From Candidatus Saccharimonadales bacterium (lineage in GTDB: Bacteria; Patescibacteriota; Saccharimonadia; Saccharimonadales; JBBQAJ01), in assembly GCA_038206875.1 (NCBI GenBank), contig JBBRAK010000001.1:1037-65036 (forward strand): a stretch of 64,000 bases of DNA, given 5' to 3'. The notes below the pieces were generated by a model. That model was not told the DNA's origin, searched no databases, and saw only the letters and a program-made list of their open reading frames with translations. This document shows, piece after piece, positions 4,615 to 64,000 of this stretch (its first letter is position 1; the number at the start of each line of letters is the position of its first letter). A program made the translations under genes and the position numbers.

Positions 4615-5766
4615 ATGAAACTAAAATATAAAATCAGTTTAATCCTATCAATCGTAATGGTATTTTTCGGAGTACTTTCAGTTGATGTGTCTACCGCCGC
4701 GGGAACAGCTTCTTTCAGCCTAAGCCCTAGTAGCGGGAGCTACAATATAAACACTAACTTTACGGTGACAGTTTATGAAAATAGCGGTTCAGATGCGGTT
4801 AGTGCGGTAGAGGCAGATCTAGCATATGATCAAGCGAAACTGCAGTTTGTCAGCACTGATACCAGTACCAGCGCTTTTGATGTTTCGTCCGTTAGCTCTG
4901 GGGGAAGCGGCTATGTTAATTTCCAAAGAAGTAAAACTGGCACACTTACCGGAAATCAAATTGTCGGAAAAGTGACATTCAAAGCCTTACTTGGCTCGGG
5001 TACTACCTCCGTAACATTTGCCCCAAGCTCGGCAATAAGTACATCAGGCAACACTAACATTTGGGATGAATTAACGACTGGCGGAACGTATACTATGACA
5101 ACGCCAGCACCGGTTAGTGACAGCAGTCCATCTGTTGGCACAACATCGAGTTCTAGCCCAAGTGCTGGTTCTGTCGCAAAAAGCAAACCGTCGTCAACAA
5201 CTGCTGATAGTTCGTCTGGCGCAGAGGCCGAAAAAAATAACTCATCTGAATCAGTTGTAGCAAATAACGATTCGACTTCGACTAGCTACTTGGTTTCTGT
5301 AAAAATAGTAAATAGTAAGGGCAAACCTCAAGTAGGTATAGACGTGGCACTGGGCAGTAACTACGCCAAAACTGATTCTACAGGGGTTGCGAGCTTTAGC
5401 GGGATTACGCCTGGAAGCTACAAGGTGAACGTACAGGGAGGCAAGATAATGGGCGATTCGACAATCGTCGTAGACGGCACTAAGTCAACTAAACAAGTCC
5501 AACATTTTGAGCTCAAGCTGAAAGCAGTTCTGGGTTTGCCAATATTGTTAGAAGTTGGAGGAGGAATAGTTCTAGTGATAATAATTGGTTACTTATTACT
5601 TCATAAGACTTCGTTTAGGCAAATGTTGGGAAAGCTGTCGGGTAAAAGTTCTGTACCAGATAAACATCCAGCTCCAACGTCTACAGTGTTTAGTGGTTCT
5701 GTTATTCAGCCGACGGTTGTTAGCACTGAGGCGAACGTTAAGGAGTCCAAGTTACAGAGTTATTAG
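4615..5766 (+). CDS. Surface protein: signal peptide + cohesin-like domain + S/T-rich linker + CarboxypepD_reg-like domain + TM anchor
   Basis: The signal peptide is MKLKYKISLILSIVMVFFGVLSVDVSTAAG. A cohesin-like segment reads FSLSPSSGSYNINTNFTVTVYENSG..VSAVEADLAYDQAKLQFVS..GKVTFKAL. It also has VKIVNSKGKPQVGIDVAL...TDSTGVASFSGITPGSYKV and a TM segment ILLEVGGGIVLVIIIGYLLL. Confidence 0.6.
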   Translation: MKLKYKISLILSIVMVFFGVLSVDVSTAAGTASFSLSPSSGSYNINTNFTVTVYENSGSDAVSAVEADLAYDQAKLQFVSTDTSTSAFDVSSVSSGGSGYVNFQRSKTGTLTGNQIVGKVTFKALLGSGTTSVTFAPSSAISTSGNTNIWDELTTGGTYTMTTPAPVSDSSPSVGTTSSSSPSAGSVAKSKPSSTTADSSSGAEAEKNNSSESVVANNDSTSTSYLVSVKIVNSKGKPQVGIDVALGSNYAKTDSTGVASFSGITPGSYKVNVQGGKIMGDSTIVVDGTKSTKQVQHFELKLKAVLGLPILLEVGGGIVLVIIIGYLLLHKTSFRQMLGKLSGKSSVPDKHPAPTSTVFSGSVIQPTVVSTEANVKESKLQSY

Positions 5767-5787
5767 TTTCTACTACAAGCTTCAATC

Positions 5788-5946
5788 CTAATACGTTTTA
5801 GTCACGACTTGCCGGGTTTGGTGCGAGGTTAGCTTTTCAATCAAATCGTGAGGAAAGTTAGAGATGTATTCGTCAATATTTTTGTAAGAGTTCTTAGGCA
5901 TCACCCAAGTACATACCAATGAAGATGCAGACTTTACGACTGTCAT
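5788..5946 (-). pseudogene. Possible remnant of a DUF1801/YdhG-like gene (N-terminal fragment only)
   Basis: Manual reverse translation gives MTVVKSASSLVCTWVMPKNSYKNIDEYISNFPHDLIEKLTSHQTRQVVTKTY*. The NIDEYISNFP...IEKL segment resembles the DUF1801 N-terminus (tvdEYIasfP..vqe.l). Family members are about 120 aa, and this reading frame stops after 37-52 aa. Confidence 0.3.
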
Positions 5947-6004
5947 TGACAAATTAAGTGGTTTATGCTAGAATTATATCTGTTAAACAAAAATAAACAT
6001 AAAC

Positions 6005-7669: not shown

Positions 7670-8710
7670 ATGAGCAAAAGAAAAGCTAGTATAAAAAGAA
7701 CGAGGGAGTTAATGCAAAACAAGCGCAACGTATTTATATTCGTGGGAGTGTTTGCTTTAATCGGTGTTGCAACACTGCTTATAAGTAAAGTAGCTACACC
7801 AGCCTATAGTGTAGAGGCCGAAGATGGAACAAGAACGGGCTCAGCCAGCATAATTCCAGCATCAGGAACTGATTCAACGTTAAGTGGTGGTAGGGCAATT
7901 GCATTTGGAAGCGCCGTAACACCACCACCATCCACAGGCCAACCACCCACTGCAGTTACTGGCGGAGCGACATGGAATACACTGTGGGCCGATGAGTTTA
8001 ACGGCTCCAGTATAGATACAAGTAAATGGAATGTTCTGAATAATAGTAACTACGGAACTGGAAACAACGAAGAAGAATGTTATATGACTGGTAATACTGT
8101 TGTCTCTGGAGGATCGTTAAGACTCATCGGAAAACAAGACTCAAATAACGGTTGTTCTGGTTACAAATATACTTCCGGATTTATAACTACCAGCAAACTT
8201 GGCGGTTCGCAAAAGTTTAAGTTCAAACAAGGTTATACCGAAATCAGGGCTAGGCTACCCAAGGGTGGTGGTTGGTGGCCAGCATTTTGGCTGGTAGGTG
8301 CCGACACCGCACCAGGTTGGCCTGCATATGGAGAGATAGATGTTATGGAAGCATACGGTACATACCCATGCTGTATTGAAGAAACCTTCCACTGGGATAA
8401 CGGTGGGCACAAACAAGAAGGAGGTGCGTCTAGAGATGTAGGTAGTACAGATAATACCGATTGGCATACCTACGGAGTCAATTGGACTGCTAGCAAGCTT
8501 GATTTTTACATCGACGGCGTAAAGAAGCAAACTTTCACTCCTTCCGATTCTGGTGCGACAGCTGCGCTGGGATATGAGCATACAATTGATATAAACCTAG
8601 CTATAGGCGGTGATGGACCAAGAAAATATCATGGCTGGAATGGAACCTGGGCTAGCGGTGATCTTCCTGGAACATATGAAGTTGATTATGTAAGAGTATG
8701 GCAACCATGA
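7670..8710 (+). CDS. Secreted glycoside hydrolase family 16 (beta-glucanase/laminarinase type)
   Basis: It has the shared leader (TM segment, then ATPAYSVEAEDGTRTGSASIIPASGTDSTLSGGRAIAFGS). It also has WADEFNGSSIDTSKWN, the GH16 catalytic motif GEIDVMEAYG (ExDxxE) and a DYVRVWQ end. Confidence 0.85.
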   Translation: MSKRKASIKRTRELMQNKRNVFIFVGVFALIGVATLLISKVATPAYSVEAEDGTRTGSASIIPASGTDSTLSGGRAIAFGSAVTPPPSTGQPPTAVTGGATWNTLWADEFNGSSIDTSKWNVLNNSNYGTGNNEEECYMTGNTVVSGGSLRLIGKQDSNNGCSGYKYTSGFITTSKLGGSQKFKFKQGYTEIRARLPKGGGWWPAFWLVGADTAPGWPAYGEIDVMEAYGTYPCCIEETFHWDNGGHKQEGGASRDVGSTDNTDWHTYGVNWTASKLDFYIDGVKKQTFTPSDSGATAALGYEHTIDINLAIGGDGPRKYHGWNGTWASGDLPGTYEVDYVRVWQP

Positions 8711-8726
8711 TAAAGGAGTTATGATA

Positions 8727-11357
8727 ATGTATAAAATTATTAAATCATTAACTAGTAATGGCAGTCGAAACCTGCTACTTGCTATGGCGTTTTCTATTGC
8801 AGTGTTTGGGGTTGCTTTTGCGTCTCCTCAATCTGTTAGTGCAGCATGTACAGCGCCATCAGCTCCATATGGTTCTGTCAGCTATACGTCTAATGTAACT
8901 CAAGCAGGAACTTACCGAATTGCAGTTCGACTTAAGGCGCCTACAACTACAGATAACTTTTTGGCAATTGATGTTGGTAACAACTGTAATATCAAGTATC
9001 AATTGGCCGGGTCAGATAATGTAGCTAACACTTGGAAATGGATTAGTTACAAAGACGGCAACAGTGCTAGCGTTGTCAATCTTAACCTAACCGCTGGCAA
9101 CAATGTTATCAACTTATACGGTACTGCACCTGGTGTTCAGGTTGACCGCGTATTACTTATGAGCGACACGGCTTGCCTACCAACCGGGACTGGTGACAAC
9201 TGCTATACTCCGCCCGACACCACACCCCCAACAGTTAGCCTTACTGCTCCGCAGGCTGGTAGCACAGTTCAGGGAACAGCCGCCACAGTAAGTGCTAATG
9301 CAACGGATGCACAAGGGATTAGTAAAGTAGAGTTTTACTCAGGAACGACATTAATTGGTAGTGACACGACATCACCATACTCAGCTAGCTGGAATACTAC
9401 AACAACGGTAGATGGGCCATATTCACTGACAGCCAAAGCATTCGACACTTCTAACAATTCTACGACTAGTTCAGCAATATCGGTTAAGGTTACAAATACA
9501 CCACCGCCACCTACTCCAGATACGGAGCCACCAAGTACTCCTGCGAATTTGCAGGCGACACTTGCTACTGGAACAACTACTCCTCAAGCAAATTTGACCT
9601 GGACGGCAAGCACCGATAACGTGGGCGTCAAAAGTTACGACGTTTACAAAGGGACAACTCTCTTAAAAACTGTTACTACAAATGCAACAACAGATAGTGG
9701 TTTAACAATCGGACAAACATACTCTTATTATGTTATAGCTAAAGATGCGGTCGGTAACGCTTCTGCGAAGTCCAATACGGCCTCAATTAGTATTCCGGAT
9801 TCTGTAATTCCTACGGTAAGTATTACAAGTCCATCCGCCGGCACAACTGTGAGCGGAACGGTGAATGTTGCTGCGACCGCGGGCGACAACATAGGTGTTG
9901 CCAAAGTTCAATTCTTGGTTGACGGAGTAGTACAATCACCAGCAGATACTAGTGCGCCATATGCCTTCAGCTGGAACACAACAGCGCTTGGAAATGGTGC
10001 TCACACTATTGCGGCGCAATCATACGACGCTGCAGGCAACAAATCATTGGTGGACAGCAAGTCCGTTACTGTTCAAAATGGTGACACAACGCCACCTTCT
10101 GCTCCCGGCAATTTCAAAGCAGTTGCTAGTGCGTACAACAAAGTTGTACTTACTTGGACCGCAGCAACAGATGCGAGTGGCATAAAAGATTACCTGTTGT
10201 CCAGAGATGGTGTATGGGTAGGTCTCATGGGCGCCAACACCACAACCTACACAGATACAAATGTTACAGCCACAACTAAGTACAGCTATGAGCTCATAGC
10301 CATAGATAATGCCGATAACCTTAATTCAGCCACAACTTCGGTTACTACTCCAGATGCACCCGATTCTCAAGCTCCATCAGCACCAGCTAATCTCACGGCA
10401 ACAGCTGTAAGTACAACTCAAATAAACCTTTCATGGCAAGCAAGCACCGACAATATTGGGGTCAAAAACTACGAAGTTTACAGGGGTAGCACCAAAGTAG
10501 CTACTGTGACAACAACAAGCTTCGGTGACACTGGATTAAGCCCTGACACGAGCTACAGCTATACAGTAAAAGCTGTAGACGCTGCTGGAAACAGTAGTGC
10601 AGATTCAAATACTGCAACCGTCAAGACTCCAGCGCCACCTGTAACTTCTACAAATGTAGCACTGAACAAACCCGCAACAGTTTCATCTGTCGAGTCTACT
10701 AATTACTCAGCTTCACGTGCAGTAGATGGAGATGCTGGTACTCGATGGGCAAGTGCGCTCAAATCCGACGGTAGCGGTGGTAGCGATCCAGAGTGGATAT
10801 ATGTTGACCTTGGTTCTAGCTACGATGTTAGCGGAGTTAAGCTTAACTGGGAGGCGGCTTATGGCAAGGCATACCAGGTACAAGTATCAACCGACGCATC
10901 CAGCTGGCAGTCGATATACAACACAACTAGCGGAGATGGCGGTGTAGATGATTTGACTGGCCTAACTGGATCGGGTCGCTATGTTCGAATGTATGGTACT
11001 GCTAGGGGAACGAAATGGGGATATTCACTGTTGGAGATGGAAATCTACGGTAAGCCTAGCAACGTAACTCCACCGCCACCACCTCCTCCACCGATTCTGT
11101 TGAATGGGGATGTGTATGGTCAGGTTAGGGATTCGAGCACACAAAAAACTCTAGGTTCAGTCTACGTATCAATCTATTACAGTGGTAGTACTCACCGTGT
11201 GAAAACTAGCAGTACAGGTAACTATAGGATGACTGGTGTTCCTGCAGGTACATACTCGTTTAAGTATGTTAGAACCAATTACATTACACTTAATTCAGAT
11301 GGAACAATCCCGTCGGGTTCGACTTTGACCAAGAACATAACGATGGTTCACAAATAA
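8727..11357 (+). CDS. Large secreted multidomain glycan-binding protein (CBM-like + Ig-like x2 + FN3 x3 + F5/8 type C discoidin + poly-Pro + CarboxypepD_reg-like)
   Basis: The ORF opens at 8721, but the ATG at 8727 has better spacing to AGGAG (8714-8718). The signal peptide ends ...SPQSVSA/ACTAP. Ig-like repeats read PTVS(L/I)T(A/S)P..G(S/T)TV.G...V.A.A.D..G(I/V).KV(E/Q)F..., followed later by SPYSASWNT or APYAFSWNT. FN3 repeats read PSxPxNL.A....T.(A/I)NL(T/S)W.AS(T)DN(V/I)GVK.Y(D/E)VY. The discoidin segment is ALNKPATVSSVES..AVDGDAGTRWAS. A PPPPPPPP run lies at about nt 11068-11095. Confidence 0.8.
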   Translation: MYKIIKSLTSNGSRNLLLAMAFSIAVFGVAFASPQSVSAACTAPSAPYGSVSYTSNVTQAGTYRIAVRLKAPTTTDNFLAIDVGNNCNIKYQLAGSDNVANTWKWISYKDGNSASVVNLNLTAGNNVINLYGTAPGVQVDRVLLMSDTACLPTGTGDNCYTPPDTTPPTVSLTAPQAGSTVQGTAATVSANATDAQGISKVEFYSGTTLIGSDTTSPYSASWNTTTTVDGPYSLTAKAFDTSNNSTTSSAISVKVTNTPPPPTPDTEPPSTPANLQATLATGTTTPQANLTWTASTDNVGVKSYDVYKGTTLLKTVTTNATTDSGLTIGQTYSYYVIAKDAVGNASAKSNTASISIPDSVIPTVSITSPSAGTTVSGTVNVAATAGDNIGVAKVQFLVDGVVQSPADTSAPYAFSWNTTALGNGAHTIAAQSYDAAGNKSLVDSKSVTVQNGDTTPPSAPGNFKAVASAYNKVVLTWTAATDASGIKDYLLSRDGVWVGLMGANTTTYTDTNVTATTKYSYELIAIDNADNLNSATTSVTTPDAPDSQAPSAPANLTATAVSTTQINLSWQASTDNIGVKNYEVYRGSTKVATVTTTSFGDTGLSPDTSYSYTVKAVDAAGNSSADSNTATVKTPAPPVTSTNVALNKPATVSSVESTNYSASRAVDGDAGTRWASALKSDGSGGSDPEWIYVDLGSSYDVSGVKLNWEAAYGKAYQVQVSTDASSWQSIYNTTSGDGGVDDLTGLTGSGRYVRMYGTARGTKWGYSLLEMEIYGKPSNVTPPPPPPPPILLNGDVYGQVRDSSTQKTLGSVYVSIYYSGSTHRVKTSSTGNYRMTGVPAGTYSFKYVRTNYITLNSDGTIPSGSTLTKNITMVHK

Positions 11358-35713: not shown

Positions 35714-38700
35714 ATGACCGTAATACAGCCAGAGGCTGTCACATCTACCTCTCCGGACTCCTCAAGTTCGGGTAAGGGAAATACTACCGACACATCGGCG
35801 TCCGTGGTCCAGTATGGCCTACCCCAAAATAACTTCCCCCTAGAAGATCTAGAATTTCATGCAGAAGGTAACTCTCCCAGCGCACCTCAAGTTGCTACTG
35901 CAGACGGAGTGTCTCCTAAGCGTGGTACTCTAGCCTTTTCTGGCCGTAAGGCAATGATAGTATCAATTGCTGTAACGGTGCTGGTAACTCTACTTACCGG
36001 TGTGAGTATGTTGTTACTGGCTAAAAATAGCCCAAAGACTAAGCAGTCCGGTCAAACAAATGTACAAACTCAAGACGTAACTCTAAAAGATGCTGAGATT
36101 AGAGCCCTTCCCAACGAATTGCAGGGAGCAAACCAATCTCTACTGGTAAATGGTGATTTAGTAACCAGGGGTAATTTAAAGTTTTCAAACAGTAATTTTA
36201 TATCTGTTCTTAAGGTCGAAAACTCTACGGCTAATCAGACATACGCATTACCAAACTCCAGCGGTACTATCTGTCTGGATAGTAATAATTGTAGCTATGT
36301 TACGTCGAATCAACTGCAAGTTCTTCAAACTCAGGTGGCAACAAACGCCGGCTCCCAAGGGAGTGGCGTAACGGCTTTAAATAACCAAGCCGGCAACATA
36401 ACACTGCAAGGTAGCGGAGGTTTAACAATTAGCGGTTCTGGCGGAAGTTTAAATTTAAATTTGCCACAAGATTTAACAACATCTGCAAGTCCCCAGTTTG
36501 CCGGGCTTACGGTAGCCGGGACCGTAAACGCCAGCAGTATTACTAGTTCAGGCCAGATTACATTTTTTGCAAATGGTCAAAGCTATATACTACCAACAAC
36601 TGGGGGTCCCGGGCAGACCATCTGTACGACTGGTATAACCTGTACGGCAGGTGGCGGAGAAGCCGTAGCTTTGGGTCCAAATGTGGCTGGGGTGTCGACC
36701 GCTCAACAAAACGCCTCGCCAATTAACTCATCGATATTTATAAATAACACTGGCGGTGCTAATTTATTGCAACTTCAATCAAGTGGTTCAGATGTGTTTT
36801 TAGTTGACAGTAGTGGAAATGTCACTGCAACGTCGTTCATCGGAACCGGCTCTGGACTTACTAGCCTAAATGCATCAAATATTAGTTTAGGGACATTGGC
36901 AGACAACAGACTTAGCGCAAATGTTGCGCTGTTGGATCGGCTTGGACAAACATTCACAGGAACTAATTTGTTCCAAAACACAAGCAACTCAGCGAATGCC
37001 GTACAAATAAAAACTTCCGCAGGAAGCGGTGGAGTCAGTTTGTTTAACGCGGATACAACTACTAACAGCGTATCTTTTGGTGGTTCAGCATTGTTCCAAA
37101 ACGCTACTGATTCTACAACTGCCTTTCAAATAAAAAGATCTGCTAGCTCTGGTGGAGATGCTCTATTGAGCGTCAGTACGTCTTTTATACCATCAATTAC
37201 AGTGGGTGGAACCGGTTCGGCAATCACGAATATACAGTCTGGAAATGGTGGAATCAGCGTTCAGCCTGCAGGCACAAGTGGCGGTGCAGTTACTATTCAG
37301 GCAGGAAACTACACGGGCAATACCGGCGGTAGTGTGTCAATTAATGCCGGAAGTGGTACTACCAACGGAAATATTAATATTGGAACTACCACAGCAAATA
37401 ATATAAGCATCGGCTCAACATCGTTAGCAGGTACCCTGTCTTTAGAAACTGGGACAGGACCAATTAACATAGGCACGGCTACTGGCAGCCGGACCATACA
37501 AATAGGTAGCTCAAGTTCTAGCTCTGGGACTCAGACGATAAATATTGGGAACAACAACACCAGTGGAGGCACAACAAATATAACGTTAGGTTCTGGCTCC
37601 TCAGCTACTGGCGGTACAACAACATTACAATCTAAGGGTGGGCTTAACTTGGGAAACAGTATTAGCTCAAGTATAGCTATTCAGCCAGCTTCGGGGGGAA
37701 CTGTGGGCATTGCAAATAATAATTCGGGTGCAACAATTAATATTGGCGCCACCGGTAGTAGTGCAACCACCACCACCGTTCATATAGCCGATTCGACAGG
37801 TAATGCTGCCCAAGCAGTCACAATTGGTGGAACTGGCAGTACTAGCACCACTACGCTACAGGCAGCCAATGCCACCGGCACTGGAGTTGCAATTACCGAC
37901 AATAGCACAACTTCCGGTACTGCACTACAAGTTACCGCAAACGGACTAAACACAGGCAATGGTGTAAATATATCTACAACACGTTCATTTGCTAGTGCTG
38001 GAGAATTAATAAGTGGAAACGTGCTTAACGTCAACCGTACACTGACAACTGGATTCAATAACCCAACCTATACGACACCACAGTTTGATGCATCATGTGA
38101 GTCGAATGTTACTAGTGGAATCGCTACTACTACGGATTGTTTAAGTTCATTGCTTCTATCCAAAACGACATCTGGACACGGTGGTCGAATTCTCCTTGTA
38201 TTTATAAGTACTATCAATAGCGCAGGCCCAACTTCTGTATCGTATCAACGTGACGGCGTTACTATTACGAACTTGTCCTTGTTGAGGGGTTCGTACGCGA
38301 CTGGTTCTGGCGGTGGAGTTTCGACATTCTCGTTTGTATATTACAAACTCCTAGACAGTGGTCTACCAATATCTGATGCAAATATTTGCGCTAGTGGCGA
38401 TGGACATTATTGTAGTATTCGTTCTACCGCCGCAAGTGGTACATGGCAGACCATGAACGCCGTTGCATACTACAATGTTGTCCAATCTGCACCGAATAGC
38501 AGTGGTACGGCTACTACAACATGTACAGGTGGAAACTCTTCCTGTGCCGCAACCACCACGATTACTCCCAGTAGCGTAAATGATTATGTGCTGGATTATG
38601 CCGGCACAGGAGACTCAAACAGTAATTACTATAATTTATATGACCCTTGGAATCACTATACACTTAGTAATCCATCGGGAACAACTACGTCGGAAGCGTG

Positions 38701-40951
38701 TTCAACTACAATTTTTTCGCCGTATTGCTATTCATCTGATCAAAATTTTGGAAATCGTAATGTCGAAGGTCATTTATGGTTAAATAAATGGTCCAGTGGT
38801 TCAAATTTTATAAATGCTAACACTTTCGGAATATCTATAAGTGGTTTCTATATTTCAAGTAACACTGGACTTAACGTCATGCAGGTAGCACTAACACCGA
38901 TATCTGTTCCGCTAACTGTAACAGGAAGTTTGGCGACTCTTCAGAGTAGTTGTTCGACACCATCTGGCGGATGTGGTTCGGATAATTCCAACATTTTAAC
39001 TCTTTCCCAGCTCGATACTGGGAATACAGGAGCGGTATTGAGCCTGCAAAATTCTGGTACGGGACTGGACATTCTTCTAGGAAGAGGAACAATAGATACA
39101 GGCACGACTTCAGGGAATAATATTAGTATTGGCACTCAAAGCTTCAGTCATAACGTTACTGTTGGCTCTCAAACCGGCACCAGCGCACTCACGCTAAACG
39201 CTGGCACAGGAACAATTAGCATCGGTACATCGGCTAGTGCACGCACAGTAAACATTGCTACAGGTGCAGCCGCTCAAACAGTCACAGTAGGCTCGACTAA
39301 CACCACTAGTACTCTAACTTTACAAGCTGGCTCTGGTAATATATCAGTTAAATCACCAAAGATTACATTTGCTGAAGCCGCGGATCGAACACTAGACGTA
39401 CAGACAAGAAGTACCAACGCTATTGGTAATAACTTGACCGTCAAAGCCGGCGACGCTGGGTCGGGTGCAAGTGCATTCGTGGGTGGTAATTTAGTTCTTC
39501 AAGCAGGAGATGCTGCTGGTACCGGAAACGCGGTTGGCGGTAGCGTCATTGTGCGGGTGGGTGCGAAAGTTGGCACCAGTACGGAAGGAGCATTTGATAT
39601 TCAAGATAGTAGTGGCAGTCCTTTCTTTAGAGCGAGAACTTCAGGTGGTGTTGGAGGAGGCGCGGCTGTTACGTGCGGGCTGTTCTTGACCAATACATGT
39701 ACCTATACCTCCGGCTTGGTTGGAACTAACAGCACCAGCACACATTTAAATATTGTGAGCCAAAACACAACTACAAATGGACTTGCCACAGGAAATATTA
39801 GTATAAACACAGGCAATGCGTCTGGAACCACGGCCAACTCGGGGACAATTACAATCGGAACAGGTACGGCAACCGGAACACCCGGGGGTGTAATTGTCAA
39901 AAATGGAACAAACTCAACCACTTCTTTCCAGATTCAAGACTCGGCAGGAACGTCAAATTTATTTGTAGCTGATACGTCCAATACTCGCATAGGAATCGGC
40001 ACCAATACACCATCAGCATTACTAGACGTGAAATACGCAAACTTCCAGGAGACACTCATAAACGGTGGTTCTATAGATATAACTAGCACAAATGCTGTTG
40101 TGCCTATAATAAATGTTAGTCAAACAAATCTTGGCGGGTCGCCACTGCTAAGTTTCAATACAAATTCTGCAAACGTATTGCAAGTTGCGAATGATGGAGC
40201 TATATTATCGCAAAACTACGCTGATTCTACTGATGCGTTCAAAATATTGAGAAAAACTGGGAACCAAAGATTATTTAGCGTAGATACACTCAATAGTACA
40301 CTATCTATTGGACAATTAGCTCCGGATCCAACAGTTAAGTTGTTGATAGATACAACTTTGATTGGCTTAAAAATTCATGTTTCTGCTGGTGCAAGCAAAG
40401 CATTAGTGATACAAGGGGACAAAGTCGGGGTTCCTACAGATATGTTTACAATATCTAACTCTGGGGCAGTATTGTCTAAAAATACAGCAGATTCAACGAC
40501 CGCGTTTGAAATTCAAAACACTTTAGGGACAGCCCTCCTGAGTGCAGACACCTCAGGTATGATACTTACAGTTAAGACTCTAGTTGTAAATGGGACATTA
40601 TCTGTAAATGGTCACGTTATTTCAGGGAATAGTAGCGGAACCACAACCATAGGTACTCCTGCAGGAGCAGCTTGTACTACGCCAACCCTAAATATCTCTG
40701 GCAACGACAGCTCAGGGAAAATATCAATAACAACAGGTACAGGGTGCGGTGCAACTGGTGTACTTGGAACGATTACATTTGCCAGTGCTTATGCATCGGC
40801 GCCACGAGTACTATTAACCCCTGCAAATGCTAGCGCAACCACAATCCAGTACTTCAATGGAGCCAGTAATACTACCACCTTCACGCTCAATACAAACACC
40901 GCGCCAGCAGACGCCACTCTGTACGAATACAACTACTGGGTAGTTCAATAG
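35714..40951 (+). CDS. Giant (1745 aa) membrane-anchored fibrous surface protein, G/S/T/N-rich beta-helix-like repeats, tail-fibre-like motif, lectin-like C-terminus
   Basis: This is an uninterrupted 5.2-kb ORF. One TM helix lies at about aa 80-103 (MIVSIAVTVLVTLLTGVSMLLLA). Repeats occur such as GTGPINIGTATGSRTIQIGS and GTGTISIGTSASARTVNIATG. The phage tail-fibre-like motif NTRIGIGTNTPSALLDV is at about nt 39985-40030. The C-terminus reads GTITFASAYASAPRVLLTPANAS. Confidence 0.8.
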   Translation: MTVIQPEAVTSTSPDSSSSGKGNTTDTSASVVQYGLPQNNFPLEDLEFHAEGNSPSAPQVATADGVSPKRGTLAFSGRKAMIVSIAVTVLVTLLTGVSMLLLAKNSPKTKQSGQTNVQTQDVTLKDAEIRALPNELQGANQSLLVNGDLVTRGNLKFSNSNFISVLKVENSTANQTYALPNSSGTICLDSNNCSYVTSNQLQVLQTQVATNAGSQGSGVTALNNQAGNITLQGSGGLTISGSGGSLNLNLPQDLTTSASPQFAGLTVAGTVNASSITSSGQITFFANGQSYILPTTGGPGQTICTTGITCTAGGGEAVALGPNVAGVSTAQQNASPINSSIFINNTGGANLLQLQSSGSDVFLVDSSGNVTATSFIGTGSGLTSLNASNISLGTLADNRLSANVALLDRLGQTFTGTNLFQNTSNSANAVQIKTSAGSGGVSLFNADTTTNSVSFGGSALFQNATDSTTAFQIKRSASSGGDALLSVSTSFIPSITVGGTGSAITNIQSGNGGISVQPAGTSGGAVTIQAGNYTGNTGGSVSINAGSGTTNGNINIGTTTANNISIGSTSLAGTLSLETGTGPINIGTATGSRTIQIGSSSSSSGTQTINIGNNNTSGGTTNITLGSGSSATGGTTTLQSKGGLNLGNSISSSIAIQPASGGTVGIANNNSGATINIGATGSSATTTTVHIADSTGNAAQAVTIGGTGSTSTTTLQAANATGTGVAITDNSTTSGTALQVTANGLNTGNGVNISTTRSFASAGELISGNVLNVNRTLTTGFNNPTYTTPQFDASCESNVTSGIATTTDCLSSLLLSKTTSGHGGRILLVFISTINSAGPTSVSYQRDGVTITNLSLLRGSYATGSGGGVSTFSFVYYKLLDSGLPISDANICASGDGHYCSIRSTAASGTWQTMNAVAYYNVVQSAPNSSGTATTTCTGGNSSCAATTTITPSSVNDYVLDYAGTGDSNSNYYNLYDPWNHYTLSNPSGTTTSEACSTTIFSPYCYSSDQNFGNRNVEGHLWLNKWSSGSNFINANTFGISISGFYISSNTGLNVMQVALTPISVPLTVTGSLATLQSSCSTPSGGCGSDNSNILTLSQLDTGNTGAVLSLQNSGTGLDILLGRGTIDTGTTSGNNISIGTQSFSHNVTVGSQTGTSALTLNAGTGTISIGTSASARTVNIATGAAAQTVTVGSTNTTSTLTLQAGSGNISVKSPKITFAEAADRTLDVQTRSTNAIGNNLTVKAGDAGSGASAFVGGNLVLQAGDAAGTGNAVGGSVIVRVGAKVGTSTEGAFDIQDSSGSPFFRARTSGGVGGGAAVTCGLFLTNTCTYTSGLVGTNSTSTHLNIVSQNTTTNGLATGNISINTGNASGTTANSGTITIGTGTATGTPGGVIVKNGTNSTTSFQIQDSAGTSNLFVADTSNTRIGIGTNTPSALLDVKYANFQETLINGGSIDITSTNAVVPIINVSQTNLGGSPLLSFNTNSANVLQVANDGAILSQNYADSTDAFKILRKTGNQRLFSVDTLNSTLSIGQLAPDPTVKLLIDTTLIGLKIHVSAGASKALVIQGDKVGVPTDMFTISNSGAVLSKNTADSTTAFEIQNTLGTALLSADTSGMILTVKTLVVNGTLSVNGHVISGNSSGTTTIGTPAGAACTTPTLNISGNDSSGKISITTGTGCGATGVLGTITFASAYASAPRVLLTPANASATTIQYFNGASNTTTFTLNTNTAPADATLYEYNYWVVQ

Positions 40952-59790: not shown

Positions 59791-60516
59791 ATGATAGAGG
59801 TCAAAAATTTAACCAAAACTTATGGCAAAAAAGACAGTATTTTCACTGCGCTTGAAGACGTCAGTTTTTCTATTCCAAATGGTTCAAGGGTTGCTATCAT
59901 TGGCAAAAGTGGGTCAGGCAAAAGTACGCTGATGCACATTATGAGCGGACTGGATCACCCTACCAGCGGGACTGTAACCATAGACACCAAAGTATTGGTA
60001 AAAATGAAGTCCAAAGCTGTAGATAGTTTTCGGGCCAGCAAAATGAGCTTTATTTTTCAGGCATTTTTTATAGAAGGAAATCAATCTGCTTACCAAAACG
60101 TCATGTTGCCACTCGAAATTGCAAAAGTTGGACGCAGACGCAGAAAAGACATGGTTTTACAGGCACTTGAAGCGGTTGAGTTAACTGATAAAAAAAATTC
60201 AAAGGCAAATAACCTGTCTGGTGGACAAAAACAGCGACTTGCTATAGCTCGAGCGATAGTAAACAAACCTAAGCTTATTTTTGCAGATGAGCCAACTGGT
60301 AATTTGGATAGCATAACTGGCGACAAAATTATTGATTTGCTTTTTGACTTGAACAAAACCATGGGGAGTACTCTGTTTATTGTTACTCACGACGATGAGC
60401 TGGCTGCAAAATGCCAAATACAAATTTCATTAAAAGATGGCAAAGTTCAAAATATCAAAAAATCTACCGCAAAACAGGCTACAAAGACAGTTAAAAGTCG
60501 GCGGAGGAGTACATAA
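59791..60516 (+). CDS. ABC transporter ATP-binding protein (MacB/LolD/FtsE-like)
   Basis: It has Walker A GKSGSGKST, the signature LSGGQKQR, Walker B LIFADEPTGNLD and an H-loop VTHD. Confidence 0.92.
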   Translation: MIEVKNLTKTYGKKDSIFTALEDVSFSIPNGSRVAIIGKSGSGKSTLMHIMSGLDHPTSGTVTIDTKVLVKMKSKAVDSFRASKMSFIFQAFFIEGNQSAYQNVMLPLEIAKVGRRRRKDMVLQALEAVELTDKKNSKANNLSGGQKQRLAIARAIVNKPKLIFADEPTGNLDSITGDKIIDLLFDLNKTMGSTLFIVTHDDELAAKCQIQISLKDGKVQNIKKSTAKQATKTVKSRRRST

Positions 60517-61889
60517 TGTACGTTTCTGATATATTTCGCAGAAGTGGACGGAATTTACGTCAAGCCAAAGCGCGAACAATTTTGACTGCTATGGCAATTG
60601 GCGTTGGAGCATTTGCACTTACTCTGACTTTGGCCGCAAGTAACGGCGCAAAAAGTTTTGTGAACAATATTATTCAAGAAAATTTTGACCCGTCAGAGCT
60701 TATTGTAGCTAGAGAGGAAAGTTTGTTCACCGGGTCAACCGATAATTCAAAGCCCCAAGAATACAATGAAAACTTTGGCGATGGTGTAAGTAACGCAGGA
60801 GCGCCGGTACAAATACAATATCTAAGCGCTGGTGACGTTGAAACGTTAAAGAAAATTGACGGAGTTGAAAGTGTCAGGCTGGGAGTGGCAGTTAATCTAC
60901 AATACATAACCAGGCCTGATCAAAAAAAATATGTCGGTACAATTCAAGCACTAAGCCAGTATCAAAAAGTGGATATTGTTGCTGGATCTAGGCCGGAAAA
61001 ACTGGACAACAAACAATTGCTTTTGCCAGAAGGGTTTGTAGGTCCTTTGGGGTTTGAAAGTGCCCAGAGTGCAGTTGGCCAGGAGATTACTGTTGCGGTT
61101 AGAAAATCTTTTAATCCTGATGAATTGCTCGCAAAATCTCGTGCAGGTGGGGACGTAACGGCTTTGATATCACAGGCTGAATCAGATGTGGTTAGGACTG
61201 AACAATTTACGGTTGTAGGCGTGACCAAAAAACAACCAACCTCACAGCCTGGTACGGAGTTATATTTGTATGGTGGCGAAACGGATGTGCAACAATTGCA
61301 AGAAATTAATACGGCAGGTACTAGCACATTCCAGAAATACCAAACGGTCTATGCGAGGATAAAGGATGGGACAGACGAAACCAAGTTGAAAGATGCTCAA
61401 AAGCGTATTAAAGACGCTGGATTTGCTTCTTTTAGCGTAAAAGACACTCAGCAGTTTTTGAACCAAGCCATAAATGTTTTGCAGGGAATCGTAGTGGCTT
61501 TTAGCCTGATTGCGGTGGTGGCGTCGTTGTTTGGAGTTATAAATACTATGTATATAAGTGTTTTGCAGAGAACTAGGGAAATTGGTCTCATGAAAGCTCT
61601 TGGCATGCGTCGGCGTGACGTGAGTAGGCTTTTCAGGTTTGAAGCGGCTTGGATTGGTTTTCTAGGCGGCACTCTCGGTGCGGGTTTGGCATATTTATTG
61701 GGTTTGGCTTTGAACCCCTGGATTACCAAGAAACTAGAACTTGGTGAAGGAAAAGCACTATTAGAATTTCAGTTCCCACAAATTGCTCTGCTTGTAGTGG
61801 CTTTAGTTCTAGTCGCTGTAGTAGCCGGTCTATTTCCAGCCAGAAAAGCCGCCAAACAAGACCCCATAGAAGCCCTCCGCACAGAGTAA
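60516..61889 (+). CDS. ABC transporter permease, FtsX/MacB type with large periplasmic domain
   Basis: It has an N-terminal TM segment, an extracytoplasmic domain of about 270 aa, and the FtsX-type motif REIGLMKALGMRRRDV. It also has three C-terminal TM segments and the ending DPIEALRTE. Confidence 0.88.
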   Translation: MYVSDIFRRSGRNLRQAKARTILTAMAIGVGAFALTLTLAASNGAKSFVNNIIQENFDPSELIVAREESLFTGSTDNSKPQEYNENFGDGVSNAGAPVQIQYLSAGDVETLKKIDGVESVRLGVAVNLQYITRPDQKKYVGTIQALSQYQKVDIVAGSRPEKLDNKQLLLPEGFVGPLGFESAQSAVGQEITVAVRKSFNPDELLAKSRAGGDVTALISQAESDVVRTEQFTVVGVTKKQPTSQPGTELYLYGGETDVQQLQEINTAGTSTFQKYQTVYARIKDGTDETKLKDAQKRIKDAGFASFSVKDTQQFLNQAINVLQGIVVAFSLIAVVASLFGVINTMYISVLQRTREIGLMKALGMRRRDVSRLFRFEAAWIGFLGGTLGAGLAYLLGLALNPWITKKLELGEGKALLEFQFPQIALLVVALVLVAVVAGLFPARKAAKQDPIEALRTE

Positions 61890-61939: not shown

Positions 61940-62431
61940 TTATTTTGTAATAAATTGTCCAGCAATCTTGTCTTTTTGCACTTTGTCCGCCTCAAAATAT
62001 TGCCCATTCATAGCGATATAAACCCCAGGTTTTAGCACCTGAACAAACGCAAGTGCGTTGCCAAGGTTGAACATTGCATCAGACTTAACCCCAAAGCTAT
62101 ATGGCACCATTGCGCCAGTTAGGACGATTACTTTATTGAGAATTCCAGCATTAAGTATGCTTTTTGCTGTTTCAACCATAGTGTCAGTACCATGGGTAAT
62201 CACTATTTGGGATTCTTCGCTCGTTTTACAGACGTTTACGATTAAGTCACGATCACCTTGTGTTAAATCCAGACTATCTTTCAATAAAAGTTGCTTTACT
62301 TTTGCACTTCCGGTAAATCGACTAACATGAAGCATGTCATCTACGTGAGTGCTCTCAAAGCCCAGCTCAGCAGTTAATTCGTTGTACTCTTTATCAAAAG
62401 TTCCTCCCGTTAACAGTAGCAAGATATTCAT
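61940..62431 (-). CDS. Single-domain asparaginase-like protein (N-terminal asparaginase domain only)
   Basis: It has LLLTGGTFDK (the TGGT catalytic Thr motif), ITHGTDTMVETA (HGTDT) and LTGAMVP. At 163 aa it is about half a type I asparaginase. Confidence 0.6.
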   Translation of the reverse strand: MNILLLLTGGTFDKEYNELTAELGFESTHVDDMLHVSRFTGSAKVKQLLLKDSLDLTQGDRDLIVNVCKTSEESQIVITHGTDTMVETAKSILNAGILNKVIVLTGAMVPYSFGVKSDAMFNLGNALAFVQVLKPGVYIAMNGQYFEADKVQKDKIAGQFITK

Positions 62432-62502: not shown

Positions 62503-63033
62503 CTACGGTTTTAGTTTTTGGTTAAATTTTTGGCGGAGTTTTTGGATTTTGGGGTCAATTACTACTTGGCAGTAACCGGCACTGCGATTGTTGTTATAGA
62601 AGTTTTGGCTGTCTTCGTCGGCAGGCCAGAATTTTTCAAATTTTGTAAGCTCGGTTACAACAGGGTCTTTGTACAAAGTTGGAGCAAAGTTAACTATCAT
62701 ATCTTGGGCAATTTGTTGCTGGTCTGGGTCATGATAAAAGATAACGGACCGATATATATTACCTACGTCTGGACCCTGACGGTTGAGGGTAGTCGGATCG
62801 TGCATAGCAAAAAATATTTCTAAAATTTCTTTGTAACTAATAACCTTTGGGTCAAAAGAAACTTGCACCACTTCTGCATGACCAGTAGACATGGTGTAGA
62901 CCTGCTGTGATGTTGGGTTTTTCACACTACCACCCGAGTACCCAGATACTACTGCGTCAACACCTATGACTCGCTGGTAAAAAGCTTCCAAGCACCAATA
63001 ACATCCTCCACCAAGCGTCGCTACTTCTTTCAT
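62503..63033 (-). CDS. msrA: Peptide methionine sulfoxide reductase MsrA
   Basis: It has ATLGGGCYWCLEA (a GCFWC variant), VVSGYSGG, TGHAEVVQVSFDP, DPTTLNRQGPDVGNIYRS and VIFYH. Confidence 0.95.
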   Translation of the reverse strand: MKEVATLGGGCYWCLEAFYQRVIGVDAVVSGYSGGSVKNPTSQQVYTMSTGHAEVVQVSFDPKVISYKEILEIFFAMHDPTTLNRQGPDVGNIYRSVIFYHDPDQQQIAQDMIVNFAPTLYKDPVVTELTKFEKFWPADEDSQNFYNNNRSAGYCQVVIDPKIQKLRQKFNQKLKP

Positions 63034-63050
63034 ATGCTAAGTCTATCATG

Positions 63051-63056
63051 TATAGT
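63051..63056 (+). promoter_or_regulatory. -10-like element TATAGT 7 nt upstream of ATG 63064 (leaderless heliorhodopsin transcript?)
   Basis: The sequence is catgTATAGTatttcgcATG. It lies inside the 30 bp that separate the msrA start codon from ATG 63064. Confidence 0.3.
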
Positions 63057-63063
63057 ATTTCGC

Positions 63064-63978
63064 ATGGCTACAACAACTAAATCCAAGGCAAAGAAAAAAA
63101 CTACCAAAAAACCTGCAAGTCAGGCAAGTGCGAAATCATCATCAACTAAAGCAGTAAAAGTTACCAAAGCAACTAAGTCTAAAACCACAGTCGTAAAATC
63201 AAATAGTAAATCAAACTCTAAACCAGTTACAGATATACTGAGGAACCTCAATCTACTTAGCGGTATTTTGGGTCTTGCTCTGGCGGTGGCTGCAGGATTT
63301 TTGATGAACCGTTCGTCTTATCAGATATTTTCAGGTCTGCTCAGCAAAGACGCGCTTGCTAGCAAAACCGAAACGGTTTTTGCTCCAGCAGTACATGCAG
63401 TATTTGATTTGCAACTACGGTGGGCGGTGGTCGGAATATTAGTTGTTTCGGCAATTGTTCCACTATTGGCGGCAACTAGAAAACGCAAGATGTACGAAGA
63501 GTCTCTCACTAAGAAAGTTATGTTGCCACGCTGGATAGAAATGGCAGTTGTGAGTGCGCTTATGGTAGAGGTAATAGCTCTTTTGAGCGGTGTCCAAGAT
63601 GCAATGACGCTAAAACTAATCGGTGGGTTCATGGTAGTAACTACACTACTGGGTTACTTATGGGAAAAACAGTCCTTAAAATCAGATGGTTCAGCGAAAA
63701 ACATATACAGACTAAGTATATTGACTGGAATTTTGCCATGGTTAGTTATTGCTAGTTATGCTGTAAATACAGTTGTATATGGCATGGTGCGTTACCCTTG
63801 GTATGTTTATGCGCTGTACGCTACTACTCTGGTTGCCTTTATGGGTTATGCCAGAAACCAAATGCGCTATGACAGAGCGAACATCAACTACGAAACAGCT
63901 GAAAATGGTTACTTGCGAATTGGTATTTTCGCCAAAGTTTCTTTTGCACTGATACTAATTGTTGGTCTATACAAATAA
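63064..63978 (+). CDS. Heliorhodopsin-family 7-TM retinal protein homologue with Lys/Ser/Thr-rich N-terminal extension
   Basis: Seven hydrophobic helices are visible. TM3 reads LPRWIEMAVVS (heliorhodopsin RWxE, Glu at nt 63538-63540). The end of TM4 reads GYLWEK, and TM5 reads GILPWLVIASY. TM7 reads RIGIFAKVSFALIL, with Lys at nt 63934-63936 at the retinal Schiff-base position. The ORF opens at 63034, but ATG 63064 (MATTTKSKAKKK...) is more plausible. Confidence 0.75.
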   Translation: MATTTKSKAKKKTTKKPASQASAKSSSTKAVKVTKATKSKTTVVKSNSKSNSKPVTDILRNLNLLSGILGLALAVAAGFLMNRSSYQIFSGLLSKDALASKTETVFAPAVHAVFDLQLRWAVVGILVVSAIVPLLAATRKRKMYEESLTKKVMLPRWIEMAVVSALMVEVIALLSGVQDAMTLKLIGGFMVVTTLLGYLWEKQSLKSDGSAKNIYRLSILTGILPWLVIASYAVNTVVYGMVRYPWYVYALYATTLVAFMGYARNQMRYDRANINYETAENGYLRIGIFAKVSFALILIVGLYK

Positions 63979-64000
63979 TCTAGTTTGAAACCAGTAGAAA

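Follow-up and report, generated by a model that had tools for sequence, protein, structure and literature searches.

A heliorhodopsin with a lysine-rich N-terminal tail encoded next to msrA in a Saccharimonadales bacterium

Introduction

The best described members of the heliorhodopsin (HeR) family are 48C12 from a freshwater actinobacterium (PDB 6SU3, 6UH3) and TaHeR from a Thermoplasmatales archaeon (6IS6). The function of HeRs is still largely unsettled, and three partner proteins are known, all of them found through gene adjacency: glutamine synthetase for AbHeR (PMC9529153), photolyase for TfHeR (PMC9769723) and the ABC transporter OmrDE for OcHeR (PMC11109279). Each of the three HeRs binds and up-regulates the product of the neighbouring gene, the binding being mediated by positively charged cytoplasmic residues (PMC9529153, PMC9769723, PMC11109279). 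Here we describe the HeR gene of a Candidatus Saccharimonadales bacterium (Patescibacteria, candidate phyla radiation or CPR), the last gene in a stretch of 64,000 nucleotides (GenBank assembly GCA_038206875.1, contig JBBRAK010000001.1, positions 1,037 to 65,036; hereafter the window). Its product carries a lysine-rich N-terminal tail, and it stands next to msrA, the gene for a peptide-methionine sulfoxide reductase.

A link between HeRs and oxidative stress has been proposed from glutaredoxin, peroxiredoxin and catalase genes in their neighbourhoods, and defence against photo-oxidative stress in monoderms has been put forward as a HeR role (PMC8612252; PMC9166423). Earlier surveys, which used the SxxxK motif as a family filter, counted 80 HeRs in Saccharimonadia, and a catalogue of N-terminal extension variants (ntv1-10) comes from the same surveys (Chiriac et al. 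2022, PMC9166423; Bulzu et al. 2021, PMC8612252). The Schiff-base cavity of HeRs has highly conserved walls made by His23, His80, Asn101, Tyr108, Ser111 and Ser237 in 48C12 numbering (Kovalev et al. 2020, PMC7049168), and the extracellular half of canonical non-transporting HeRs is fully hydrophobic (PMC7049168; PMC9448325). Saccharibacteria are reported to depend on external retinal for functional rhodopsins, and the binding of retinal by HeR is fast (PMC9296517).

Results

Assignment to the heliorhodopsin family

The window's last gene codes for a genuine heliorhodopsin. It matches the Pfam family Heliorhodopsin (PF18761) with E = 4.6e-32 and 111.7 bits (cutoff 26.7) over profile positions 1–238 of 242, and the NCBIfam profile HeR (NF038020) with 112.2 bits against a cutoff of 100. 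The best solved relatives in PDB are 48C12 (E = 1.5e-13) and TaHeR, at an identity of only 20–24%. An AlphaFold2 model built from an 80-sequence alignment has a mean predicted local distance difference test score (pLDDT) of 88.5, with values above 90 throughout the membrane domain. In this model DSSP assigns helices to residues 55–80, 118–137, 154–174, 180–205, 210–240, 246–270 and 276–301 and strands to residues 85–95 and 106–117. Foldseek superposes the model on TaHeR (6is6) with a TM-score of 0.90 and a root-mean-square deviation of 1.6 Å, and on 48C12 with TM-scores of 0.84–0.87; type-1 rhodopsins do not exceed 0.74.

With both curated profiles above cutoff and the HeR fold in the model, the family assignment made in the initial annotation of this DNA is confirmed. 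The four motifs on which that annotation relied are all present and align with 48C12: RWIE (R156 W157 I158 E159) with R104–E107, LGYLWEK with FGWLQEK (E149), LPW with VPW (P172/W173) and IFAK with LVAK (K241). The register proposed for the glutamate of transmembrane helix 3 (TM3) and the lysine of TM7 is also right, since E159 and K291 align with E107 and K241 of 48C12. Residues were mapped by pairwise phmmer alignment to 48C12; a placement of 48C12 by mafft --add --keeplength was discarded for a one-residue shift that put R104 on W157. Counts of lysine plus arginine (28 on the predicted inside, 12 of them without the tail, versus 7 outside) predict an N-in topology, the C-terminus lying outside as in other HeRs. 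The inverted orientation that had been suggested agrees with these counts, and the cytoplasmic placement of the tail, likewise suggested earlier, fits both the counts and the model.

Further 48C12 residues are retained, the full set being N16, S76, Y92, R104, W105, E107, M115, E149, P172, W173, Y179, F206, Q213, Y226, E230 and K241; in the numbering of the window protein, R156, W157, E159, E201, P225/W226, F259, Q266, E280 and K291 are kept. Judging from the lysine, the glutamate counterion and much of the pocket, the protein most likely binds all-trans retinal. Other positions have changed (H23G, H80P, N101M, Y108M, S111V, N138M, M141T, I142T, S237G, Q26L and W246L), so that His23, His80, Asn101, Tyr108 and Ser111 of the Schiff-base cavity are not retained, and TM7 carries GxxxK (GIFAK) rather than SxxxK, with the fold and the lysine still present. 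Because of the changed cavity residues and the absence of SxxxK we place the protein, a HeR by fold and core chemistry, within a lineage-specific divergent subfamily.

Residue counts for this clade were drawn from the 80-sequence alignment. The position of the SxxxK serine (48C12 S237), a residue that hydrogen-bonds with the Schiff base, is Ser in 34 members, Gly in 21 and Asn in 15; the counterion position is Asp in 47, Glu in 26 and non-acidic in 7; the Schiff-base position is Lys in 66, Arg in 12, Leu in 1 and Gln in 1. Members listed as non-Lys or otherwise deviant are P0026, P0028, P0033, P0037, P0046, P0049, P0056, P0060, P0061, P0063, P0083 and P0098. Among the loci compared below, the HeR of L022 (2584–3537) has arginine in place of the lysine, and that of L012 (5929–6825) has lost both lysine and counterion. 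The clade, as aligned, evidently tolerates presumably retinal-free members that still carry the lysine-rich tail. It also has charged residues of its own in the extracellular half: E169 is conserved in 61, D179 in 78, K184 in 76 and R243 in 70 of the 80 members.

The lysine-rich N-terminal tail

Residues 1–54 comprise 16 Lys (30%), 11 Ser, 10 Thr and 7 Ala, with no Asp or Glu and a net charge of +16; residues 1–53 have no secondary structure in the model, at pLDDT 47–59. Only ~11–15 residues precede TM1 in the solved HeRs. Across the 80 aligned clade members the tail is 34–89 aa long (median 54.5), has a net charge of +10 to +27 and consists of 26.7% Lys, 22.7% Thr, 16.7% Ala and 10.8% Ser, with ~0.5 acidic residues per tail. 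It is present in ~210 of 240 HeR clusters, spanning two Saccharibacterial clades. The second of these, a canonical-type clade (P0120–P0239) in which SxxxK and a His23-type 'LHAxQG' are kept, has tails of ~65–80 residues and a MATTTKK... start in 107 of 120 clusters. Because both clades carry a MATTTK-type tail, the tail is, on this comparison, the rule for Saccharibacterial HeRs and older than the split of the two clades. The earlier remark that such a tail is not a normal feature of the family is correct relative to characterised HeRs and fails in Saccharibacteria.

The first 17 residues of the tail are 88–94% identical between loci, compared with 67–81% for the membrane domains and 40–63% for the rest of the tail. 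Such a pattern resembles a short linear motif with, behind it, a stretch in which composition rather than sequence is under constraint. Since third codon positions of the tail head vary between loci, the constraint appears to act on the protein. We also considered that the MATTT... head might be a nucleotide-level need of leaderless translation; this was rejected on the same variation of third codon positions and because the N-termini of the window's other leaderless-type genes are unrelated.

A composition scan of the window found such a tail on the HeR only. The same scan over ~200 kb of related loci (ORFs, i.e. open reading frames, of at least 60 aa) flagged, besides HeRs, two spurious frames and one real-looking gene, which encodes a Cohesin/Big-domain protein in L020 with a short basic signal-anchor N-terminus. 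The tail had no match in Pfam or among PDB chains. A tail-only profile search of 5.8 billion proteins returned nothing at E ≤ 10, a search in which low-complexity correction suppresses the signal, as at least 200 HeRs carry the tail. A literature search found no HeR paper on lysine-rich, disordered or polybasic segments. The description 'histone-like' given to the tail at first can be kept for its composition and not as a statement of homology, the tail having no Pfam or PDB match and being K/T/A/S-rich, not K/A/P-rich. Within the tail-coding region there is a terminator-like hairpin with a T-run on the minus strand (63111–63129); the count of such hairpins is within shuffle expectation, and it is probably there by chance.

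An MsrA gene beside the heliorhodopsin gene

The product of the gene upstream of the HeR gene matches Pfam PMSR (PF01625, E = 4.9e-56) and TIGR00401 (167.7 bits, cutoff 108.1). A head-to-head msrA with its start 0–30 bp away had been reported, and the two genes do stand head-to-head, the msrA ATG lying 0 bp from ATG 63034 and 30 bp from ATG 63064, the two HeR starts considered below.

Gene neighbourhoods were compared for the window plus 22 loci, where 18 distinct arrangements show the upstream side and are informative. Contig searches with the single protein had given one locus, and with a 22-sequence alignment eight metagenome loci. In 15 of the 18 informative loci (the window and 14 others) a PMSR gene lies directly upstream of the HeR gene; the HeRs paired in this way share between 76% and 31% identity with the window protein. 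The flanks of the pair change: beyond msrA there is an asparaginase-like gene, FtsX, lysS, NYN, NTP_transf_9 or an unknown gene, and 3′ of the HeR gene a U5-methyltransferase, HAD, rsmE, PDDEXK or an unknown gene.

The adjoining MsrAs are of two non-orthologous types with a mutual identity of only 40–46%. Type A (~176 aa, active-site motif GGGC[Y/F]WC) is always divergent from the HeR gene and is found in the window, L001, L006, L015, L018 and L019. Type B (motif AGCFWG) is always co-directional and is found in L002, L007, L009, L011, L014, L016, L017, L020 and L022, for example at 5494–5961 in L002 and 4500–4982 in L014; its length of 155–162 aa refers to those loci among the 14 for which the MsrA sequence was extracted, and the MsrA of L022, 169 aa as called, was assigned to type B from orientation only. 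There is no locus with both types. On a neighbour-joining (NJ) tree of the HeR membrane domain, computed without support values, types A and B are interleaved, and the HeRs of L002 (type B) and L006 (type A) are 80% identical. Repeated exchange of the adjoining MsrA gene would explain this, and so, alternatively, would recombination of the HeR gene between lineages. Since an MsrA beside the HeR has been kept in both scenarios, despite replaced MsrA types or HeR recombination, the comparison argues for functional coupling beyond inherited synteny. The coupling to methionine-sulfoxide repair that the initial annotation had hinted at thus gains comparative support, from msrA adjacency in most informative loci and from the two MsrA types.

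Adjacency is kept also in P0049, where the Schiff-base lysine is replaced. Three tailed HeRs have no adjacent msrA, those of L008 (with a divergent SPFH gene upstream), L012 and L021. The L021 HeR (5001–5966) is of the canonical type and occupies the same syntenic slot, in the order lysS ... HeR, NUDIX, U5-methyltransferase, rsmE, PDDEXK, serS, hpf; by position, the divergent HeR clade may be a fast-evolving orthologue of the canonical-type Saccharibacterial clade. The MsrAs are mildly acidic (isoelectric points 4.8–6.9).

Two genes upstream of the HeR gene lies a MacB-type ABC transporter (ABC_tran plus MacB_PCD/FtsX, 59791–61889, plus strand), and homologues lie near HeR, two genes upstream, in L001, L012, L014 and L022. 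By analogy this transporter is an alternative candidate for a HeR partner, because regulation of an ABC transporter has been described for one HeR (PMC11109279). An ORF of 163 aa (61940–62431, minus strand) with an asparaginase N-terminal domain only (PF00710, E = 3.6e-22) separates the FtsX gene from msrA. L001 has no gene at this position, just a gap of 197 bp, which points to a recent insertion or a truncated remnant.

Translation start and putative promoters

The ORF originally taken as the gene is real, and its first ATG is probably not the start. A MATTTK.../MATK... N-terminus, found in ~108 of 120 homologues, has its equivalent at ATG 63064, giving a protein of 304 aa; ATG 63034 is absent from L006 and L015, though the spacer is otherwise conserved there; and the −10-like box TATAGT falls within the longer ORF. 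For these reasons ATG 63034 was dropped, and ATG 63064 (MATTTKSK...) is most likely the true start. An exact database look-up of the 314-aa product found no identical entry.

A promoter scan detected a sigma-70-like TTCATA-16-TATAGT at 63029..63056, ending 7 nt ahead of ATG 63064. In all 11 loci examined a TATAnT box, often with TGn before it, lies 6–7 nt 5′ of the HeR ATG, whether msrA is divergent or co-directional, and there is no Shine–Dalgarno motif between box and ATG. The spacer itself is conserved among the window, L001, L006 and L015. These consensus boxes suggest that the HeR gene is transcribed from a promoter of its own, probably as a leaderless mRNA. The presumed transcription start sites of HeR and msrA are ~31 bp apart, and 'interpenetrating promoters', as the arrangement had been called, seems a fair description. 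Such a close −10 box is not special to HeR in the window: among 53 window genes, nine have a TAnAnT box 5–9 nt 5′ of the start (peak at 7–8 nt), 20 have a Shine–Dalgarno-like motif and none has both. Genes with the box, such as those starting at 1278, 3607(−), 13802(−), 20036(−), 51850, 58235, 59791, 62503(−) and 63064, have no Shine–Dalgarno motif, which suggests that leaderless mRNAs are common for operon-first genes in this Saccharimonadales genome.

The context downstream of the HeR gene was taken from L001, a 76%-identical locus, where the homologue of the next gene starts at 10865 and was assigned TRAM plus tRNA_U5-meth_tr. In the window this gene begins 6 nt past the HeR stop and may share a transcript with HeR. 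Coordinates are collected in Table 1.

Table 1. Features of the msrA–HeR region (positions in the window; CDS, coding sequence)
Feature	Coordinates	Strand	Description	Basis
msrA, peptide-methionine (S)-S-oxide reductase, type A	62503..63033	−	176 aa, GGGCYWC at residues 8–14	Profile matches
Divergent msrA/HeR spacer	63034..63063	both	30 bp, two opposed −10-like boxes	Promoter scan, locus comparison
−10-like box TAGACT	63040–63045	−	6 nt ahead of the msrA ATG; context TGATAGACT	
−10-like box TATAGT	63051–63056	+	7 nt ahead of the HeR ATG 63064	
Longest ORF of the HeR gene	63034..63978	+	314 aa, last gene of the window	
HeR CDS, most likely true extent	63064..63978	+	304 aa plus stop	
N-terminal tail, residues 1–54	63064..63225	+	Polybasic, predicted cytoplasmic and disordered; begins with the conserved 17-mer MATTTKSKAKKKTTKKP	
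Seven-helix rhodopsin domain	63226..63975	+	Extracellular β-hairpin between TM1 and TM2	DSSP of the model
E159, Schiff-base counterion (48C12 E107)	63538..63540	+	RWIE on RWVE	phmmer alignment to 6su3/9ljj
K291, retinal Schiff-base Lys (48C12 K241)	63934..63936	+	GIFAK context	Alignment to 48C12
Next gene, TRAM/tRNA-U5-methyltransferase homologue	63985..64000	+	TTG start, MKPVE...; cut by the window end	Read from sequence

Organism, retinal supply and remaining window content

The host had been taken for a reduced-genome bacterium, and the names of the relatives, 'Candidatus Saccharimonadales', 'Saccharibacteria' and 'Patescibacteria group bacterium', agree with a reduced-genome Saccharimonadales bacterium. 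Carotenoid and retinal-synthesis families have no match at E ≤ 1e-5 among the 53 ORFs that are 120 aa or longer in the 64-kb window; within that window, this agrees with the idea that retinal is scavenged.

Housekeeping genes fill the window, whose GC content is 42%; examples come from translation (IF-2, S1, S2, Ts, RRF, RF1 and the aminoacyl-tRNA synthetases for Ile, Pro and Lys), replication, division and partitioning (PriA, FtsA, FtsZ, ParAB), nucleotide metabolism (NrdR and a class II ribonucleotide reductase) and envelope (UppS). Scans of the window for tRNA genes and Rfam families gave no matches. An ORF of 1745 aa (35714–40951, plus strand) has no Pfam match at E ≤ 1e-5 and is a giant protein of the kind frequent in CPR genomes. 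A predicted glycan-active and surface cluster on the plus strand consists of a GH5 cellulase-family protein, a GH16 protein and a protein of 878 aa with Big_7, fn3, F5/8 type C and CarboxypepD_reg domains (71–1189, 7670–8710 and 8721–11357); it may relate to host attachment or feeding.

Discussion

Proposed role and what weighs against it

Taken alone, the gene is an unremarkable representative of an established family that automatic annotation would recognise, and HeRs were known from its lineage before. The novelty lies at the level of the clade: a polybasic tail with a conserved head, a remodelled Schiff-base cavity, Lys-less members and an msrA adjacency that runs through two MsrA types. 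We tentatively read the protein as a photosensory or regulatory HeR working on scavenged retinal and functionally coupled to MsrA, a reading to which we give a little less than an even chance. Retinal would be obtained from outside the cell. The HeR would not be an ion pump and would act like the three characterised HeRs that up-regulate a neighbour's product in the light; because those three bind and up-regulate the products of adjacent genes, MsrA is the candidate partner here. Photo-oxidative damage is also caused by light, and in this reading light would alter the HeR on its cytoplasmic side, drawing MsrA to the membrane or activating it there so that methionine sulfoxide is repaired. The disordered tail of 54 residues and charge +16 could serve as an electrostatic arm that reaches a mildly acidic partner or anionic surfaces. 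Separate promoters would serve the two genes, probably yielding leaderless mRNAs, and because the presumed start sites are so close, both genes might be under the control of a single RNA polymerase or regulator at any one time.

Several points weigh against a role coupled to MsrA. Our literature search found no paper pairing heliorhodopsin with methionine sulfoxide reductase; MsrA is absent from the ten HeR neighbour groups of Cho et al. 2024; and no HeR–MsrA interaction, physical or functional, is known from any organism. Synteny is region-wide (lysS ... PDDEXK, serS, hpf, secA), hence the adjacency may be partly inherited. The HeR tree is an NJ tree without support, and HeR recombination could mimic msrA swaps. 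The canonical-type HeR of L021 sits in the same slot with a tail and without msrA. As msrA still adjoins the Lys-to-Arg HeR of L022, coupling need not depend on light, and with His23, His80, Ser237 and Tyr108 replaced, the photocycle may be atypical. Finally, a HeR promoter at every locus would mean that strict co-transcription with msrA is not required.

Alternative explanations

One alternative is that the HeR is a generic photosensor, physically unconnected to MsrA, the adjacency reflecting a shared light or oxidative-stress regulon or inherited synteny. The tail would then be a topogenic or membrane-surface element that enforces the N-in orientation and binds anionic lipid head groups, not a partner. 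We consider this somewhat unlikely. The region-wide synteny, the −10 box that accompanies the HeR ATG at every locus examined and the tailed HeRs of L021, L008 and L012 without msrA all speak for it, as does the tail past residue 17, which keeps composition rather than sequence. Its difficulty is that two non-orthologous MsrA types, in opposite orientations, hold the same slot while the flanks change. Moreover, the positive-inside balance is already met without the tail (12 versus 7) and solved HeRs manage with their short N-termini, and a head more conserved than the TM domain would not be expected of a mere charge block.

A second alternative takes the tail for a nucleic-acid-binding arm in the style of histone H1 and bacterial lysine-rich tails, tethering DNA or RNA (the nucleoid, ribosomes or incoming DNA) to the membrane, possibly under light control. 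The 27% lysine, the near absence of acidic residues, the disorder and the net charge of +10 to +27 are all compatible with such an arm, N-terminal Zn-ribbon fusions of HeRs are of a type able to bind DNA (PMC8612252), and one HeR assists photolyase (PMC9769723). We nevertheless regard it as very unlikely: the tail has neither a Pfam nor a PDB match, the tail profile search was empty, and the msrA adjacency is left unexplained. The H1-like tails known from bacteria are Ala/Pro-rich, and the window tail is Thr/Ser-rich, which also counts against it.

Slightly less credence still goes to a largely light-independent role, in which the protein would be a membrane scaffold or chaperone-like partner with a vestigial retinal site, retinal perhaps being rarely obtained. 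The 14 of 80 clade members without the lysine and the seven without an acidic counterion, the L012 HeR that lacks both, the loss of the cavity histidines, and the tail and msrA adjacency kept in a Lys-to-Arg member would all be accommodated. The window protein, on the other hand, keeps the lysine, the counterion and the other retinal-site residues listed above, the lysine is kept in 66 of 80 members, and for related Saccharibacteria the use of external retinal in functional rhodopsins is reported (PMC9296517). Transport of protons, driven or gated by light as in the viral V2HeR3 and using E169, D179, K184 and R243, appears scarcely credible and was dropped on hallmark residues: these charges are well conserved in a region that is fully hydrophobic in canonical non-transporting HeRs (PMC7049168, PMC9448325), but the hallmark glutamate of V2HeR3 (E191, equivalent to 48C12 L202) is T255 here, the position of the gate Trp (48C12 F206) is still occupied by Phe (F259), and helical periodicity suggests that E169 is off the pore-lining face of its helix.

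A bolder extension of the MsrA-coupled role, which we think quite unlikely though a shade less so than a nucleic-acid arm, is that Saccharibacterial HeRs are the first rhodopsins with a disordered polycationic output arm, headed by the conserved 17 residues and switched by light, that couples illumination to targets. The arm would alternate between the cytoplasmic side of the HeR that bears it and a polyanionic target, which could be MsrA, nucleic acid or anionic lipid, and in Lys-less members some other cue would replace light. If true, illumination would be coupled directly to methionine-sulfoxide repair, or to nucleoid or ribosome tethering, in a retinal-stealing episymbiont.

Because the adjacency survived both a swap of MsrA type and a flip of orientation, MsrA can be put forward as a fourth candidate HeR partner, one that fits the proposed photo-oxidative stress role. 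The lineage-wide polybasic tail with its head motif is a rhodopsin appendage of a kind not described in the literature searched, and the Lys-less relatives offer a natural control separating light-dependent from light-independent roles. The locus bears on how host-dependent, minimal-genome CPR bacteria sense light and cope with it.

Comparison with known heliorhodopsins

The window protein shares the family, the seven-helix fold, the β-hairpin and the N-in topology (here predicted) with 48C12 and TaHeR. With 48C12 it has in common the Schiff-base lysine, a single glutamate counterion, R104/W105, E149, P172/W173, F206, Q213, Y226 and E230. It differs from both solved HeRs in the length and charge of its N-terminus, a polybasic tail of 54 aa in place of a short leader, and in the charged residues that its clade has in the extracellular half.

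The HeRs with known partners are similar in that a gene for an enzyme, soluble or in the membrane, adjoins the HeR gene, the cytoplasmic face is positive (TRKRK...KK in intracellular loop 1) and there is no ion-transporter hallmark. In contrast to them, the neighbour here is MsrA, a candidate partner outside the reported partner classes; the positive charge is mainly in a disordered tail and not in the loops; and the genes are divergent, with separate putative promoters in the window.

The surveys of Chiriac et al. 2022 (PMC9166423) and Bulzu et al. 2021 (PMC8612252) covered the same lineage and family; their main texts make no mention of a lysine-rich tail, of a link to msrA, of members that lack the lysine or of leaderless promoters, and the window protein, with GxxxK, would fail the SxxxK filter applied there. 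The MORN-HeR and Zn-ribbon-HeR proteins of Bulzu et al. 2021 are the closest in design, for they likewise have an extra cytoplasmic N-terminal element that is presumed to couple sensor and partner. Unlike those folded domains, the tail of the window protein is a low-complexity polycation, predicted to be disordered, with a conserved head of 17 residues.

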